Source of the DNA: Escherichia phage vB_EcoM_R5505 | Sequence record: MK373786.1 | Strand: one strand, 5' to 3' | Length of the DNA: 64,000 nt | Shown here: positions 12,986-40,647 of the stretch, in pieces | Layout of the letters: the number at the start of each line of letters is the position of its first letter | How positions within the stretch are numbered: the first letter of the stretch is position 1 | Translations under genes and position numbers: made by a program | Notes under the pieces: generated by a model | The model's input: the letters and a program-made list of their open reading frames with translations, nothing else | Told to the model about the DNA's origin: nothing | Database searches by the model: none

Positions 12986-13228
12986 TTATTCCTTAATTCC
13001 TAGTACTTGTTTAAAAGTCTCGTCGTAATCAAGACTTTGGCCCGTTTGTTCTTTATGTTTGTATATAATATCACTTACTTCTGATAGCATATTTTTATAT
13101 GAACGAGTTAAAGCAGATTTAAGCACGCTGTATCTATCAGGAAATTTACCATGTTCATTATAATAAGCTATTGCTAATTCACGGACTGCCTTTTCAGCAG
13201 TCTCCATATATTCTTTACGCTTGGTCAT
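12986..13228 (-). CDS. Small hypothetical protein, about 80 aa (start trimmed)
   Basis: Track ORF 12986..13387; upstream part overlaps the zinc-ribbon ORF in another frame, so start placed at [13 protein letters not shown]. Confidence 0.4.
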
Positions 13229-13532
13229 TTTCTTCTCGGTCAAATCGGTGTTTACAATGGCGACATTTATAACGAAGATTACTAGTCTGCCAATGGACCA
13301 ATTGCACCTGTTCAGTTCCACATTCAGGGCAATTAGGAACGTTTTTAGAAGCCCTTTCACGACGCTTAACCATAGCCATAATGGCATCCCATGCTGGAGG
13401 TTTAAAATCTAAATCGTCACAACCATGAATCTTTCCACGCATTTCCATATCATCTTCCTCACCAGCCATAATAATTTTAATTAAACTGGAATTACTTGAA
13501 GCTGCAATGTCTTCTAATAGACGCTTTTTCAT
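13215..13532 (-). CDS. Zinc-ribbon protein, 105 aa
   Basis: Paired Cys motifs CPECG...CRHCKHRF. Confidence 0.5.
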
Positions 13533-14458
13533 TTCAATACCTCAATAGCATTACGTAAACCATTTGCTTTTGCATTAAGAGCTTTTAACAATTTGGTGTG
13601 TTCTGCAATTTGGGCTTCAACTTCAATCAAACGAGCATTGAGATATTCGCGTTCTTCACTCAGATTATCAACCTTTTCTACTTTAGGCTCTTTTACAACT
13701 GTCTTATATGTATTAGGGTTCTTCAGTTTAATTAGAATGCGTGAACTGTATAACATTGAACCATTATCTTCGGTTTCGTCATACATTTCTACTACATCCA
13801 TAATTTTTAACATCATGCGGAGTTTATAAGACAACGAACGAATAGTTTTGTTGTGCTTATTAATTTCTTTAGCTGTCATGGTGCCGAGATTACGTGAGTA
13901 ATAATAAGGAACCTGGATATTAATTAATACTGATGAACCACCTGGCTTGTGTGTTACTTCATCAGCAATAACCCAATCCTTAACATGAACTGTATTTGTA
14001 CGGTCATCGCCCGCGGTAAATAGTTTGCGAGCATGCTTAAAAAGCATATTCACTTGGTCATTGAATTGACAAGCAAATTTATCAGCAAATTTAGTTTCAG
14101 GAATGGTAGATAACCAATCAGCCAAATGGGTCTTTTTAACATCGTTAACAATAGTAAATTCAACCAAATCAGTTATAGATGTCTCAGATTTAATAAAGCT
14201 CGGCTTCATAAAGTTTTTAATGTTATCGCGAGCTACAGTAGAAGATAACATACGAGAACGTTTAAACCATTGAAGCAAATTGCCCAACGAATGAGAATAA
14301 GCGTTTTGAGTATCTTTACAGATATGATTTTCCTGGCCAACATATTGAAGGAAATCACGAAGAATATTATTGATTACTGCTCTGTGTCCGATCTGATAAT
14401 TACGGTGTTTAGTAATAAGACTGTCAAAATAATCAATATAATGTTTACGAGTTTTCAT
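13529..14458 (-). CDS. Hypothetical protein with C-terminal coiled-coil, 309 aa (family member 1 of 4)
   Basis: Track ORF; C-terminal about 45 aa heptad-like ([42 protein letters not shown]). Confidence 0.6.
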   Translation of the reverse strand: MKTRKHYIDYFDSLITKHRNYQIGHRAVINNILRDFLQYVGQENHICKDTQNAYSHSLGNLLQWFKRSRMLSSTVARDNIKNFMKPSFIKSETSITDLVEFTIVNDVKKTHLADWLSTIPETKFADKFACQFNDQVNMLFKHARKLFTAGDDRTNTVHVKDWVIADEVTHKPGGSSVLINIQVPYYYSRNLGTMTAKEINKHNKTIRSLSYKLRMMLKIMDVVEMYDETEDNGSMLYSSRILIKLKNPNTYKTVVKEPKVEKVDNLSEEREYLNARLIEVEAQIAEHTKLLKALNAKANGLRNAIEVLK

Positions 14459-14510
14459 ATTCTTCTCACTTGGTTAATGATTTATACTCCGAGCCATCCT
14501 TGGCTTTAAA

Positions 14511-15512
14511 TTACTTAATTAACTGTAAAGCTTGTTCAAGACGATCAAGACGATTAACGGATTCTTCCCAAATCTTTTTAGCCTGCTCATATTCTTTCTG
14601 CGCTTTATTAGAAATTTCTAGAACTTCTTTATAAGCTTTTTCTAGTGCAATAACTTCTGGACGAATTTCTACCGGTTCAGGAGAATCATCAAGATTATCC
14701 ATTAGTTCCTCAAGGGTAGTTTCTTCTTTAGGAGTATTCACAATTTCATCACATTTTTGTTGGTAAATTTCTTTATCAGTCGGTGAGTACGCACACTTTA
14801 CTTCACGAAGACTAACTACAATTTTATATCCTTCCCAACCGCATATATTCTTAAAAGGATATGTATGAATATTTTCTACTGTTTCCATACAAAGTAATGC
14901 GGTCTCTAATTGACGAGTTATAGTGCTAGCAATTGAGAAAAATTTATTAATGTTCTTTTGGTTAGTTTCTGGTGTAAAAAATCCATAATTCACAAAAATA
15001 GCTACTTTATTTTTATCAAGTTCATATTCTTTTATGATAATCATATCAGAAGCCAAAGGATGAATTTGACGATAATCACCATAACATAATTTAGAAGCTG
15101 ATTTTAGAATTTGCTTCTTAAAAAGTCTGAAATTACTAATCCAACGACGAGTAAAAATATTCTCAGGGTCTTCTTTATTATTAAGATGATAAGAATTAAC
15201 ATCACCGAACCAATTATATCCTACTACATCTTTGGTTCGTTTAATTTCTTTCCCAAAATTACCAAGAATATCCCGATTAACCAAATATGAAAGAAGACGA
15301 GACTCTTTAAAGGTTTTCTTGATAACATCTTTATCTACACGGCTAGAAATTTTACGAATTTCATGAATAAATTTAGTAGAAGAAACAATACTTGCATCAA
15401 CACTATTGAGCCATTGATTGATAATAGAAAGAACGATATTTTGACCAAACATCGGTATAGCTTTATCATCAATAACGCTATTGAATGATTTGATATATTC
15501 GTTACGAGTCAT
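14511..15512 (-). CDS. Hypothetical protein with C-terminal coiled-coil, about 333 aa (family member 2 of 4)
   Basis: Track ORF 14511..15542; start moved to internal ATG 15512 (MTRNEY) with GAGGAG upstream, because the early promoter at 15541-15570 overlaps the upstream ATG. Confidence 0.6.
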   Translation of the reverse strand: MTRNEYIKSFNSVIDDKAIPMFGQNIVLSIINQWLNSVDASIVSSTKFIHEIRKISSRVDKDVIKKTFKESRLLSYLVNRDILGNFGKEIKRTKDVVGYNWFGDVNSYHLNNKEDPENIFTRRWISNFRLFKKQILKSASKLCYGDYRQIHPLASDMIIIKEYELDKNKVAIFVNYGFFTPETNQKNINKFFSIASTITRQLETALLCMETVENIHTYPFKNICGWEGYKIVVSLREVKCAYSPTDKEIYQQKCDEIVNTPKEETTLEELMDNLDDSPEPVEIRPEVIALEKAYKEVLEISNKAQKEYEQAKKIWEESVNRLDRLEQALQLIK

Positions 15513-15540
15513 ATTAATCTCCTCATTAGAAAGTAAGAAC

Positions 15541-15570
15541 ATTATACCACATCCTTGTGGCGAAGTAAAC
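15541..15570 (-). promoter_or_regulatory. Early-type promoter (GTTTAC-N18-TATAAT)
   Basis: Minus strand GTTTACTTCGCCACAAGGATGTGGTATAAT. Confidence 0.55.
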
Positions 15571-16595
15571 TAGTTTAGTGCATTTAGTGCATTGTTCAGT
15601 TTAGAACGTTGCTTTGTCAGATTTTGAACCCTTGACTGAGCTTGTTCTAACACCTTTTCAGCTTCTAGCACTTCATTGGTCGCTTTAACGAGTTCATCAT
15701 CTACTGCCTTAAGAGACTTCTCAATCGCGTCAGCGTGCCATTTTTCTACAGGTTTAAGACTCGGATTTTCAACAGGAAGAAAATTCACTTTATTGAATTT
15801 CCATGCATCATTATTACCTGAACTATACATCCAAAATTTAGAATCGTTTGATGAGCAATTGGATAAATTTAAATTTAAGTTATCTTGCACTTCTTGCTTT
15901 TTCTCTTGCGGGACTTCGTCCTTTCTCAAAAAATCGTATTTAAATGAAACAATCATATCAAGTTCATATGTTGTCGTATCTAACTTAAATCGTTCAAAAC
16001 GAGGTAAAATCTTAGATTGAACAGCAGCAACAACATCCATATACTTAAATGCTTCTGTCAACTGTGATTTAAGGCATTCACAAATTGAAAGAGAATTTTT
16101 TGTATTAGGTTTAAAGCTAATTCGTGCAGTTCTATTATTTTCTTTAAATGGTCTTACTTCCATCTGAAGAGTATAACCATCAAATTTCAGATTCTTTAAG
16201 TTAATATCAGAACCTTTTAATCGACTAGCAGTAGACAAAATTTGCTTTAATTGTCTACGGAACAGAGCAATAAATCTCCATTCAATACGATAATGATTTG
16301 GATTGAAAAATCCTGTTGATAAATCGACCTTACTTTGACCAACGCCTTGAACAAATAGAGGATTTTTATAATCAATAGTTTTACAGAAATCGGTGAGCTG
16401 CTCACGAGCAGTCATTTGTGTAATATATCCCGCTTTACTAAAATGACGTAACCATTCACTGCTATTCATATACTTAAAGTGAATGGAACTATTAACTCTA
16501 TCAGGGTCTAAATTATTTTGGCACAAAAATGTCATAACATTACGGGTATAGCTGGCATTACGAACCATATCTTCAATTTGAGAACGAGTTTTCAT
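15570..16595 (-). CDS. Hypothetical protein with C-terminal coiled-coil, 341 aa (family member 3 of 4)
   Basis: Track ORF; starts MKTRSQ like member 1 (MKTRKH); C-terminal heptad-like segment. Confidence 0.6.
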   Translation of the reverse strand: MKTRSQIEDMVRNASYTRNVMTFLCQNNLDPDRVNSSIHFKYMNSSEWLRHFSKAGYITQMTAREQLTDFCKTIDYKNPLFVQGVGQSKVDLSTGFFNPNHYRIEWRFIALFRRQLKQILSTASRLKGSDINLKNLKFDGYTLQMEVRPFKENNRTARISFKPNTKNSLSICECLKSQLTEAFKYMDVVAAVQSKILPRFERFKLDTTTYELDMIVSFKYDFLRKDEVPQEKKQEVQDNLNLNLSNCSSNDSKFWMYSSGNNDAWKFNKVNFLPVENPSLKPVEKWHADAIEKSLKAVDDELVKATNEVLEAEKVLEQAQSRVQNLTKQRSKLNNALNALN

Positions 16596-16603
16596 AGTGT
16601 TCC

Positions 16604-17512
16604 TTAAGATTTAAGTAAATCAACAATTTTAATTAATTTTTCACGCTCAGATTTAGCTTTACTACTCAATCCAGATAATCTGAAAATTTCATCGTCATAT
16701 TGTTGAATAGAAATATTCAGCTCTTCAATTTGCTTATTAAAATAATCAATTTGTTCAGAATGTTTTTCGTTACTACGAACTGGTACAAGTTTTGTAGGCA
16801 ATTTAGTTGAACTGGATTCATCCGGGCGATAAATTAAAATACAACTTGAACCAATAGGGCATTTAGCACCAGATGAATATTCTAATGTTCCGGCTTCTTT
16901 TAAAACTTCAAAAGCTAAACAGAGATGATGCCCCATATTAACATAATCTGTAGAGTGAGCTCTGATATAATAATCATCGCCGCGAATACTAAATTTAAAG
17001 CATTTAAGGTCTTCTGTATTATTGGTCTTAAAAATCATTTGTTTATCTAGACCTTTAGCTAATCGAGCGCCTAATGCTAATAATCGTCGTTGATTTTCCC
17101 ACAAATCCGCAATCATTTGATCGAATGATAATTTCGGCATTAGTCGACCATAAAGGTCATATCCTTTATTATAATTACGAAGGATTTCACTCGCGTTAAT
17201 ACGAGACAATGCTCCAATTTTATTAAGGGCTTTCATGATGCGATTAGATAAACCCATTCCAGACCCGTTTGTTCGTTGTAAATGTTTATCTAATCCAAAC
17301 CCAATATCAACTTTAAATTTATCTAAAATTTCAGCATGAACATCTCTGTCAATAACATTCAAATCCAAAGTTGGGTTAAATCTATGAAAAAATTTATCTG
17401 GCTCTCCACGACGAAGTATAGTCCATTCATTCAATTTTTTATTAACTAAAGATTTAATTACTGCATTGACATTATTAATTACTACTGACATATTTTCCTC
17501 ACTCAATTTCAA
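16604..17512 (-). CDS. Hypothetical protein with C-terminal coiled-coil, 302 aa (family member 4 of 4)
   Basis: Track ORF; C-terminal heptad-like segment (NKQIEELNISIQQYDDEIFRL...EREKLIKIVDLLKS). Confidence 0.6.
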   Translation of the reverse strand: MKLSEENMSVVINNVNAVIKSLVNKKLNEWTILRRGEPDKFFHRFNPTLDLNVIDRDVHAEILDKFKVDIGFGLDKHLQRTNGSGMGLSNRIMKALNKIGALSRINASEILRNYNKGYDLYGRLMPKLSFDQMIADLWENQRRLLALGARLAKGLDKQMIFKTNNTEDLKCFKFSIRGDDYYIRAHSTDYVNMGHHLCLAFEVLKEAGTLEYSSGAKCPIGSSCILIYRPDESSSTKLPTKLVPVRSNEKHSEQIDYFNKQIEELNISIQQYDDEIFRLSGLSSKAKSEREKLIKIVDLLKS

Positions 17513-17906: not shown

Positions 17907-17961
17907 AATAATCTCAATTAAAAGGGCTTAGAACCATTATACCATCCTTGGTATAAAGCGG

Positions 17962-18489
17962 TTATGCGAGTACCGTCTTTAACCGTTCTTCAAACTTCCG
18001 AAGAGTATTCTGGCGTTCAGCTCTTTGCTTTTTGTAAGTTTCAATACGCTCTGAAATGAGAGTGTATCGTTCATTTACTGATTCTTTCATAAAATCAGGA
18101 ATTTCACGAGAAGCTTTAATCTCATCAAATTTATCAATAACAGCTTGCTCTTCAGCAATTAAGTTATCATACATCAAAATATCTTTCTTGATGAACTCAA
18201 TATCTTCTTGAGTTACACGAGATAATTTAGATGCTTTATCCTTTTTGTACTGTTCGTTAGTATCACGAGACCAGTGTAATGTACGATTTTTATTCGTATT
18301 TTTGTAAATTTCTACAATACCAATCTCATCAATAATAACGATCCAATTCCAACGGGATTTGTAAATTTGTCCTCCATCAACCGTGATTTCACCTCCGATT
18401 GAGATGTCATTAAAGAACTTGCTTTGTGCTTCTGATTTAAATTTACCATCATTGTAATTTACCAGGTTGAAAATATCTTTAGCGTTCAT
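17962..18489 (-). CDS. Hypothetical protein, 175 aa
   Basis: Track ORF directly downstream of early promoter 18518-18547. Confidence 0.5.
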   Translation of the reverse strand: MNAKDIFNLVNYNDGKFKSEAQSKFFNDISIGGEITVDGGQIYKSRWNWIVIIDEIGIVEIYKNTNKNRTLHWSRDTNEQYKKDKASKLSRVTQEDIEFIKKDILMYDNLIAEEQAVIDKFDEIKASREIPDFMKESVNERYTLISERIETYKKQRAERQNTLRKFEERLKTVLA

Positions 18490-30587: not shown

Positions 30588-31061
30588 TTATTTGAACGAT
30601 TTAACGTACTGAATAGAACCTTTACTATTTACAAAGGCAATTTTACCATTTTTATTATACATGGTAGCAGTACGTTGATAACCATAAGTTTGTTTACCAG
30701 ATTGATAACCAACTAATGCGAAATTATCTTCGCCCATTTTATTCTGTTTAGCGCGAATGCGTTCATGACCATGTGCCATAAGAACCTTAGCATCACCGGT
30801 TGCAATGGATCGACGAGTTTTTTCATCTTCAACTGTATTAACAAAGTCGTCAAATGAATCAAATTTAGCATGAGATTTATTATACAGTTTTCCATCTACT
30901 GCATAATTATATCCCTGTACATCCATCTCAACTTCTGTACCATCATCCAATACAGCAGTGATTTTTTGACCTTTTTTAAATTTCAAAAGATCAGTAAAAG
31001 ATTCAGCAATAATTTGAGAATTAATAGCTGCTTCAGTGATAAATTCTTGATATGTTTTCAT
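30588..31061 (-). CDS. Internal head protein with capsid-targeting leader, 157 aa
   Basis: N-terminus MKTYQEFITEA matches the capsid-targeting sequence of T-even internal proteins. Confidence 0.65.
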   Translation of the reverse strand: MKTYQEFITEAAINSQIIAESFTDLLKFKKGQKITAVLDDGTEVEMDVQGYNYAVDGKLYNKSHAKFDSFDDFVNTVEDEKTRRSIATGDAKVLMAHGHERIRAKQNKMGEDNFALVGYQSGKQTYGYQRTATMYNKNGKIAFVNSKGSIQYVKSFK

Positions 31062-31077
31062 ATGATTCCTTTAATTT

Positions 31078-31395
31078 TTATTCTTTAGGAAAATTTTTAG
31101 AATATGCGTCGTAAAGCTTATTTCCAATACGACGAAAAACTCTAGCTGCAAAACGATTTTCTGGGTTTTTAATCATAATTTGCATCATATAAGTACCCGC
31201 GTCTGAAAGAGCTTCTTCATAGTACCCGTTAATTTCTTTAAGAGTCCTACGTTTACCACCAGGACCATCAACAGTGATTTTCCATTTACCTGTAGAAGTG
31301 CGACTCGGCGGCTCAACTTGTTCAATCCAAATATAACCGCCTTCTACACGTTGTCCTGCAGCAGATTCTGCAATAAATTCTTGATATGTTTTCAT
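31078..31395 (-). CDS. Internal head protein with capsid-targeting leader, 105 aa
   Basis: N-terminus MKTYQEFIAESA capsid-targeting sequence. Confidence 0.65.
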   Translation of the reverse strand: MKTYQEFIAESAAGQRVEGGYIWIEQVEPPSRTSTGKWKITVDGPGGKRRTLKEINGYYEEALSDAGTYMMQIMIKNPENRFAARVFRRIGNKLYDAYSKNFPKE

Positions 31396-40040: not shown

Positions 40041-40274
40041 TTATTTTTTACGAAAAATTGATTTATATTTATCAGCCCATTTCTCGATGACTTTTTCTGG
40101 TCCATAGATAACAAAATAATCACCAAACTCTTCACCACCGAGTTGACCGAAATTATCTAATGCATCACGAAGAACTCCATGAGGCATTTCGCCCATTTTA
40201 TCTTTCTTACCAATGTAAATAAACTCAACTTTTACATCAGCAGCTTCAGCAATAAATTCTTGATACGTTTTCAT
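40041..40274 (-). CDS. Internal-protein-like small protein with capsid-targeting leader, about 77 aa
   Basis: Track ORF 40041..40292 begins at a GTG; real start placed at ATG 40272-40274 giving MKTYQEFIAEAADVK with GGAG upstream. Confidence 0.6.
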   Translation of the reverse strand: MKTYQEFIAEAADVKVEFIYIGKKDKMGEMPHGVLRDALDNFGQLGGEEFGDYFVIYGPEKVIEKWADKYKSIFRKK

Positions 40275-40359: not shown

Positions 40360-40647
40360 TTACAAAAGATTTTTAGCAATAATCTTGAGATGTGCTGCAG
40401 AAATGTGTTTAGCTTTAAACAACGCAGTTTCTTCGGCAGGAGAGATAACGATTGTAGCACCATCCTTTTTAGCAGACCACCCATCACCTAGGTAAACAGT
40501 ACCTTTGATTTCTTCGCCATCAACCAGACTAATCATTGGTTTACCTTCTCGTCCTTTATTTGCTTTAATAACTTCAGAAGTAAGAGTAGCTTCGGTAATG
40601 GTAGAAACCGGGGTAGTTGTAGAAGTAAATTCTTTAAATGTTTTCAT
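40360..40647 (-). CDS. ipI: Internal protein I precursor (19-aa leader plus 76-aa mature), 95 aa
   Basis: 95 aa; leader MKTFKEFTSTTTPVSTITE ending in a prohead-protease-type site; position adjacent to 57B as in T4. Confidence 0.7.
   Translation of the reverse strand: MKTFKEFTSTTTPVSTITEATLTSEVIKANKGREGKPMISLVDGEEIKGTVYLGDGWSAKKDGATIVISPAEETALFKAKHISAAHLKIIAKNLL

Follow-up and report, generated by a model that had tools for sequence, protein, structure and literature searches.

Four tandem genes of Escherichia phage vB_EcoM_R5505, nrdC.3 to nrdC.6, as probable diverged copies of one T4-like-phage gene and candidate counter-defence factors

The stretch of DNA analysed here, called the window, comprises 64,000 nucleotides of Escherichia phage vB_EcoM_R5505 (MK373786.1), and our subject is an array of four consecutive genes on its minus strand. 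By the annotations of phages Shfl2, FelixPlatter, T4 and T6, these are the T4 genes nrdC.3, nrdC.4, nrdC.5 and nrdC.6. They are flanked by nrdC (thioredoxin), nrdC.1 and nrdC.2 on one side, and by nrdC.7 to nrdC.11 on the other. A 5-kb query over the array matched 741 phage records, the best matches being Escherichia phage AV122 (99.5% identity) and other genomes of Tequatrovirus, the T4-like genus to which the window belongs. The genes themselves are long-annotated open reading frames (ORFs) of T4; the addition made here is evidence that places all four in a single superfamily, along with a small group of homologues from T4-like phages. As the anti-defence role of nrdC.5 has already been published, the system is not of a new kind. 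The four genes are placed as follows.

13529-14458, minus strand: nrdC.3, 309 amino acids, from the ORF list; phrog_1435, expectation value (E) 1e-116.
14511-15512, minus strand: nrdC.4, 333 amino acids, start at ATG 15512; phrog_1435, E 6e-169; homologues carry PF26897.
15570-16595, minus strand: nrdC.5, 341 amino acids, ortholog of the T4 anti-Dsr1 gene; Pfam DUF7235, E 1e-118.
16604-17491, minus strand: nrdC.6, 295 amino acids, start at ATG 17491; phrog_2257, E 1e-151; homologues carry PF26899.

A preliminary description of the window had reported four consecutive minus-strand genes of 309, about 333, 341 and 302 amino acids, two of them beginning with MKTR. The ORF list reproduced their coordinates and sizes, and the two MKTR starts belong to NrdC.3 (MKTRKHY) and NrdC.5 (MKTRSQ). 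The last size is correct for the ORF, but the protein is likelier to have 295 residues. The maximal nrdC.6 ORF (16604-17512) gives 302 amino acids from a TTG; the start is most likely ATG 17491, a codon preceded by GAGGAAA and used in public annotations. For nrdC.4, the maximal ORF (14511-15542) corresponds to 343 amino acids. ATG 15512 was retained as its start because a GAGGAG Shine-Dalgarno sequence is found there, and because the other candidate, the ATG at 15542 further upstream, falls within the -10 box belonging to the promoter described below. NrdC.4 starts with MTRNEY, so that M(K)TR is present in three of the four proteins, NrdC.6 starting with MSVVINNVNA.

Reference collections divide the four proteins into three families. 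NrdC.3 and NrdC.4 share a single PHROG, while NrdC.5 and NrdC.6 each belong to another. The Pfam division is the same, with PF26897 for NrdC.3/4, PF23882 (DUF7235) for NrdC.5, which it matches over residues 1-341 with 396.8 bits for a cut-off of 30, and PF26899 for NrdC.6. PF26897 and PF26899 were assigned via close homologues (PF26897.1 and PF26899.1), and PF26897 gave no match in the Pfam copy searched. Direct pairwise BLASTP, tried as a family link, joined NrdC.3 and NrdC.4 only (25% identity over 226 amino acids, E 1e-6). Alignments of each lineage were enlarged with orthologs from Gaprivervirus VR26, Dhakavirus IME08 and Mosigvirus PhAPEC2, and compared with hhalign. The NrdC.3/4 profile matched NrdC.5 at 91.8%, with an E value of 7e-7 over 239 colinear columns, and at 86% (E 5e-6) once the C-terminal 60 residues were removed. 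By these comparisons NrdC.3, NrdC.4 and NrdC.5 are clearly homologous, and their N-terminal regions, which the preliminary description called divergent, are detectably so too.

NrdC.6 was connected to the others through intermediates. HMMER and tblastn revealed single-copy, syntenic homologues in T4-like phages of Klebsiella and Enterobacter, namely F48 gp57, IME523 gp085 and Metamorpho gp214. A bridge profile made from these matched NrdC.3/4 (E 6e-13), NrdC.5 (E 3e-14) and NrdC.6 (E 4.9e-6, 180 columns), and the hidden Markov model of NrdC.6 matched IME523 gp085 directly (E 4.7e-8), in an alignment covering the globular motif NQRRLLALGARLxxG. Reversed and column-shuffled controls all gave E values of at least 0.055, and an unrelated neighbouring gene family stayed below 1% probability when compared with the bridge. 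With Foldseek, the AlphaFold2 models of NrdC.5 and NrdC.6 both matched proteins of IME523, PM2 and fHe-Yen9-01 (E 1.8e-6, 3.7e-6 and 1e-3, respectively, for the NrdC.6 model), and the NrdC.5 model also matched the NrdC.6 of Sf25 (E 1e-3). The two models agree in the order of their secondary-structure elements, and in a joint alignment five common motifs follow each other colinearly across members. NrdC.6 is therefore very probably homologous to NrdC.3/4/5. The paralogous family that the preliminary description had proposed is thus borne out by BLASTP, profile alignment and, for NrdC.6, the bridge with Foldseek, and no strong match of the four to an unrelated characterised family was found.

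When the lineage profiles were run against the 247 ORFs of at least 60 amino acids in the window, the best non-self match was always another array member, and no fifth copy was found. NrdC.8, and the genes of about 260 amino acids beside the single-copy homologues, were unrelated to the family by profile comparison. A HMMER search with the NrdC.3/4/5 profile returned 18 hits among 1.84 billion representative proteins, and by this measure the NrdC.3/4/5 family is very narrow. In the literature searched, no statement on the paralogy of the nrdC.5 neighbours was found.

Each protein is composed of an N-terminal alpha/beta globular region, a linker of variable length, a short P-V-E...H...IEK motif, and an amphipathic C-terminal heptad helix of about 50 residues. 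Motifs common to the N-terminal region are M(K)TR, SRxLSxxxARxxLxNFGK, (R)WxxxFRxxxxxILxxAxRLxxGxD and QLxxALxxMDxV, whereas the linker is poorly conserved and predicted with low confidence (predicted local distance difference test, pLDDT, below 50). All four proteins (34-40 kDa) are soluble and, in contrast to NrdC.7, a membrane protein encoded nearby, contain no hydrophobic segment; three of them are basic, with isoelectric points (pI) of 9.2-9.4. The C-terminal helices map to the following positions, where a/d denotes the hydrophobic positions of the heptad.

13532-13678, minus strand: NrdC.3 C-terminal heptad helix, last 49 codons; a/d occupancy 0.86, p 0.0024.
14514-14660, minus strand: NrdC.4 C-terminal heptad helix, last 49 codons; a/d occupancy 0.86, p 0.0006, moment z 4.1.
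15573-15743, minus strand: NrdC.5 C-terminal helix, residues 285-341; AlphaFold2 helix 285-340 with pLDDT 74-88; a/d occupancy 0.93, p < 0.0002.
16607-16768, minus strand: NrdC.6 C-terminal helix-break-helix; AlphaFold2 helices 249-278 and 284-301 in the numbering from the TTG start; a/d occupancy 0.86, p 0.0002.

The heptad periodicity was evaluated against 5000 composition-preserving shuffles. In the last 49 residues of all four proteins, hydrophobic a/d occupancy was 0.86-0.93 (p at most 0.0024) and the 3.5-residue hydrophobic moment had z values of 2.4-4.2. The moment was not significant in the controls NrdC.8 (p 0.21) and NrdC.10 (p 0.13); a/d occupancy was not significant in NrdC.10 and marginal in NrdC.8 (0.64, p 0.033). 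All four proteins have the long helix, free of proline and glycine and with heptad periodicity, by which a coiled coil is recognised, and they end in the similar tails AIEVLK, ALQLIK, ALNALN and IVDLLKS, of pattern A-[LI]-x-x-L-K. This confirms the common C-terminal helix of about 45 residues and its tail, as first noticed in the bare sequence, and the helix may serve in oligomerisation. Two AlphaFold2 models were available, with pLDDT of 66.7 for NrdC.5 and 74.9 for NrdC.6. In the former, the terminal helix extends over 56 residues and is preceded by a segment, 226-280, with pLDDT below 50; in the latter, the corresponding low-confidence segment is shorter (233-249).

Searches of Pfam, NCBIfam and PADLOC returned only sub-threshold noise (PHL, Phage_int_SAM_1, tyrosine recombinase, BrxC/BrxF, PgrA), apart from the families given above, and profile searches of the PDB returned designed helical repeats, other chance-level matches, or nothing. 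The fold is one without a solved relative. Among the sub-threshold matches, residues 30-86 of NrdC.3 weakly resemble the N-terminal, SAM-like DNA-binding domain found in tyrosine recombinases; the scores, E 0.075 in Pfam and E 0.0013 in NCBIfam, fall far short of the curated cut-offs. Separately, the region at about 140-220 of the NrdC.5 model, a beta-hairpin/helix/beta-hairpin, was weakly matched by Foldseek (E 8e-3 to 5e-2, target template-modelling (TM) score 0.33-0.39) with tail-completion, tail-terminator and head-tail connector proteins of phages. These matches could hint at mimicry of a structural protein or be noise.

Two intergenic features accompany the genes.

14459-14510, minus strand: nrdC.4-nrdC.3 intergenic spacer, with hairpin motif GCCAAGGATGGC, a TATAAA box and the nrdC.3 ribosome-binding site.
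15541-15570, minus strand: T4 early-type promoter at the nrdC.5/nrdC.4 junction, GTTTACT-N17-(TG)-TATAAT; 10/12 in the promoter scan, with TG.

The promoter, read from 15570 to 15541, comes immediately past the nrdC.5 stop codon, and its spacer holds the inverted repeat CCACA-AGGA-TGTGG. It fits TTTACW-N17-TAYWAT, which is the consensus of the promoter-early stem-loop (PeSL) promoters of PST and T4 (PMC4122927), and it is conserved in seven phages: T4, T6, Shfl2, FelixPlatter, Pinarejo and the more distant VR26 and IME08. The early promoter supposed to be embedded between array members is, as a predicted element, supported by its consensus match and its conservation. Transcription of the genes is probably early, driven both by read-through and by the promoter that precedes nrdC.4. 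A terminator-like match is present in the nrdC.4-nrdC.3 spacer, on the opposite strand.

Hairpins of the same type occur around the array. The motif CCAAGGATGG (CCA-AGGA-TGG) is located at 14494-14503 and at 17942-17951 on the minus strand, in each case a short way upstream of a TATAA(A/T) box, one preceding nrdC.3 and the other nrdC.7. The variant CCACAAGGATGTGG, at about 15546-15559, lies in the nrdC.4 promoter spacer, and the promoters of VR26 and IME08 show the same motif. Ahead of nrdC.7, CCAAGGATGG follows a GCTTTA box, with the spacing of a MotA-dependent middle promoter. In the window as a whole, CCAAGGATGG is not above chance, with 3 matches for 2.2 expected.

The distribution of the genes was measured by tblastn among 50,697 phage records, where NrdC.3 was found in 653, NrdC.4 in 553, NrdC.5 in 581 and NrdC.6 in 741. 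There are four copies in Tequatrovirus, three in Gaprivervirus, Dhakavirus and Mosigvirus, and one in Kanagawavirus, Marfavirus and Jiaodavirus. In these six other T4-like genera the family occupies the same site, between nrdC and nrdC.8/nrdC.10, and the three genera with three copies do not retain the same lineages. Identity across genera is lowest for the NrdC.5 lineage (about 23-27%) and reaches 44-51% for NrdC.4 and NrdC.6.

Deletions and fusions are seen within Tequatrovirus. Salmonella phage Manna (L006, 4215-5252) carries an in-frame fusion, NrdC.6(1-274)::NrdC.4(257-333), whose junction falls at a short DEI/GATGAAAT microhomology; nrdC.5 and most of nrdC.4 are deleted. ACG-C40 has kept only out-of-frame remnants of nrdC.5 and nrdC.3, and in Pinarejo nrdC.6 is reduced to its last 47 codons. 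In metagenomic data, one protein fuses NrdC.5 to NrdC.3. Another, P0237 (173 amino acids), joins an unrelated N-terminus of 115 residues, for which no match was found in the window or the fetched loci, to the C-terminal helix, its last 53 residues being identical to a common NrdC.5 allele (P0001). The accessory character of the region, suspected from the window sequence, and the variation in copy number are thus confirmed.

The ratio of non-synonymous to synonymous substitution rates (dN/dS, or omega) of the four genes, against six relatives, was 0.05-0.29, compared with 0-0.08 for endonuclease VII, nrdC, nrdC.8, nrdC.9 and nrdC.10. The window NrdC.3 is only 61-63% identical to the NrdC.3 of T4 and T6, with a dS of about 1.0. 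Since dS is about 0.1-0.2 in neighbouring genes, this indicates whole-allele replacement of nrdC.3. Within Tequatrovirus, tblastn distinguished three NrdC.3 allele classes, of at least 94%, 75-79% and about 60% identity. Gene nrdC.2 (13215-13532, minus strand) is also a mosaic allele, 63-89% identical to T4 and T6, whereas the flanking genes are at 97-100%. NrdC.5 has 94% amino-acid identity with T4 (dN 0.026), and the gene order nrdC.4-nrdC.5-nrdC.6 is conserved. From the dN/dS values, the deletions and fusions, and the allele replacement, the four genes are under purifying selection, yet of high turnover and several times faster in their evolution than their neighbours; the same omega values argue that all four are functional.

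An anti-defence role is documented for one member. On ECOR17, the SIR2 protein Dsr1 makes a T4 deletion mutant fail, and T4 nrdC.5 alone, on a plasmid, restores its plating on MG1655 carrying the ECOR17 dsr1 (Srikant, Guegler and Laub 2022, PMC9391042). The host-interaction or anti-defence role that the preliminary description had thought fitting for all four thus holds, so far, for this gene of T4, and the window NrdC.5 is its 94% identical ortholog. According to a 2026 preprint, the TPR sensor that Dsr1 has in common with Avs7 is triggered by a phage major capsid protein (PMC12803255). In the HIDEN-SEQ preprint (10.1101/2025.11.20.689424), T4 nrdC.1 counters Septu, bas37_0203 counters Druantia III, and nrdC.3 to nrdC.6 of T4 are classed as non-essential on E. 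coli K-12. We considered whether bas37_0203 could be one of the four genes and excluded it, as its coordinates (528 bp) and the gene order match nrdC.8. Together, the effects of nrdC.5 on Dsr1, of nrdC.1 on Septu and of the nrdC.8 equivalent on Druantia III designate the locus as an anti-defence island.

Both outer genes are present in the window. The nrdC.1 gene (12986-13228, minus strand, 80 amino acids) encodes a protein 100% identical to that of T4; a 133-amino-acid ORF overlapping it, at 12986-13387, is probably not the real gene. The nrdC.8 ortholog (17962-18489, minus strand, 175 amino acids) is 99-100% conserved in Tequatrovirus relatives, with omega of 0.08 or less.

The interpretation that we favour, at somewhat better than even chances, is that nrdC.3 to nrdC.6 derive from a single gene of T4-like phages as four tandem copies, since diverged, situated in a dispensable hyperplastic region and encoding early cytoplasmic immune inhibitors with distinct targets. 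NrdC.5 neutralises Dsr1, a host SIR2 NADase, the effect having been shown in T4. It would act as a protein inhibitor in stoichiometric amounts, already made when the late capsid protein that sets off Dsr1 appears. Oligomerisation and avidity, or docking, would come from the C-terminal helix, and target specificity from the faster-evolving body, with NrdC.3, NrdC.4 and NrdC.6 acting likewise on other host immune proteins. A more ambitious version, which we put forward as tentative and rather doubtful, sees in the superfamily a modular platform for immune evasion that is peculiar to T4-like phages. Here the common helix and the P-V-E...IEK motif would be a docking or oligomerisation device, and duplication, in-frame fusion and the replacement of alleles would adapt the fast-evolving alpha/beta body to block different host immune sensors, including the capsid-detecting TPR of Dsr1/Avs7, so that NrdC.3, NrdC.4 and NrdC.6 would each inhibit a distinct defence system.

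Several observations weigh against the interpretation of four inhibitors with distinct targets. No phenotype or experiment was found reported for NrdC.3, NrdC.4 or NrdC.6, nor any published account of how NrdC.5 acts on Dsr1, by direct binding or indirectly. In the HIDEN-SEQ preprint, one comparison finds all four genes neutral (log2 fold change -0.31 to 0.47, q = 1), and nrdC.3 to nrdC.6 are absent from its strain table of knock-out constructs. Confidence in the NrdC.5 model is moderate (pLDDT 66.7), and the NrdC.6 helix, interrupted in its model, may form a hairpin rather than oligomerise. The Foldseek cross-hits, with E values of 1e-3 to 5e-8, have low TM scores (0.3-0.46) and come from two models only; the elongated, flexible shape of these models accounts for the low scores. 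Finally, NrdC.6 is linked to the others transitively, its direct profile comparisons with them being weak (E 1e-3 to 3e-2). It could accordingly be asked whether NrdC.6 resembles NrdC.3/4/5 only in size, position and a convergent C-terminal coiled coil. The direct hhalign of NrdC.5 with NrdC.6 was not significant (E 0.016-0.11), none of the 18 hits of the NrdC.3/4/5 profile came from the NrdC.6 family, the M(K)TR start is missing from NrdC.6, and the bridge fell to 46% probability (E 2e-4) when the C-terminal 60 residues of NrdC.6 were removed. We nevertheless hold such convergence to be unlikely, given the full-length bridge and the match to IME523 gp085, which includes a globular motif, both well outside the range of the null comparisons, and given the Foldseek targets in common with NrdC.5 and the colinear motifs.

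Other functions can be imagined for the same genes. If the proteins were host-takeover or nucleic-acid-binding factors, for instance binding DNA or the nucleoid and modulating early infection, the anti-Dsr1 effect of NrdC.5 would be indirect. The basic charge of three of them, the SAM-like match of NrdC.3 and the fact that the searches found no account of the NrdC.5 mechanism all go in this direction. However, the recombinase matches are sub-threshold, limited to NrdC.3 and both from the same segment, the PDB profile search gave chance-level matches only, and full dispensability on K-12, rapid evolution and copy-number flux suit arms-race genes better, which makes this reading quite improbable. 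We also give little credit to the idea of a single hetero-oligomeric complex with the four proteins as its subunits, assembled through the C-terminal helices and having one function instead of four specificities. Similar helices, a common tail and adjacent, probably co-transcribed genes would suit such a complex, but NrdC.5 alone rescued the T4 deletion mutant on Dsr1 hosts, natural phages carry one, two or three of the genes in varied combinations, and NrdC.3 alleles have been swapped independently (dS about 1.0 versus about 0.1). It is also very improbable that NrdC.5 is the sole functional copy and the others decaying or neutral duplicates hitch-hiking in the hyperplastic region. Natural deletions and out-of-frame remnants are indeed frequent, and no phenotype is reported for the other three. 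Against this, intact ORFs of all four are kept in hundreds of isolates (549-683 records at a coverage of at least 80%), dN/dS is well under 1 even for NrdC.3 at a dS of about 1, and each lineage is conserved across genera at 27-51% identity.

The interest of the array as a set of diverged immune inhibitors lies in the candidates it provides. As they belong to one superfamily with nrdC.5, a known anti-Dsr1 gene, NrdC.3, NrdC.4 and NrdC.6 become specific candidates for new counter-defence proteins, and the array sits between the anti-Septu nrdC.1 and nrdC.8, matched to an anti-Druantia III factor. Although no phage has been studied better than T4, three of the four genes are without assigned function. 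The homology suggests that three Pfam/PHROG families should be merged into one superfamily, unless they already form one Pfam clan. Since the fold has no solved relative, a structure of NrdC.5 with Dsr1 would inform on both partners. More generally, the locus illustrates how T-even phages diversify their anti-defence genes, with copy numbers of 1 to 4, whole-allele swaps and in-frame fusions of paralogs.

Among known systems, the closest is T4 NrdC.5 itself (DUF7235, PF23882). The gene at 15570-16595 is its ortholog, in the same position, and the other three are its paralogs, classed differently in Pfam and PHROGs (PF26897/phrog_1435 and PF26899/phrog_2257). DSAD1 of SPbeta-like phages reportedly inhibits DSR2, a SIR2 NADase whose sensor recognises a late structural protein. 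The likeness to NrdC.5 would be one of functional analogy only, a phage protein blocking a defence-associated sirtuin; similarity to DSAD1 in sequence or fold was not found.

The T4 internal proteins IPI, IPII and IPIII are a small, diversified anti-defence family with a short conserved terminal module and variable bodies and loci. Their capsid-targeting sequence, MKTYQEFIAE, has a loose resemblance to the starts MKTRKHYI, MTRNEYI and MKTRSQIE of the NrdC proteins. The NrdC proteins differ in being without the (L/I)-x-E protease site, in their early-type promoter, in their length of 300-340 amino acids and in having the common helix at the C-terminus. Their starts (MKTRKHYIDY, MTRNEYIKSF, MKTRSQIEDM and MSVVINNVNA) are not capsid-targeting sequences, and nothing in the sequences points to capsid packaging of NrdC.3-6. 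Elsewhere in the window, three minus-strand genes do start with MKTYQEFI[AT]E (30588-31061, 31078-31395 and 40041-40274), and a fourth, at 40360-40647, starts with MKTFKEF.

Lastly, the array may be compared with the PeSL cassettes (PMC2839356, PMC4122927). It differs from them in that its small inverted repeat sits inside the promoter spacer, and in that both mapped natural fusions (Manna and P0056) have their junctions within coding sequence. It resembles them in its promoter, which fits the consensus, and in its situation in a region where gene gain, gene loss and allele replacement are frequent.

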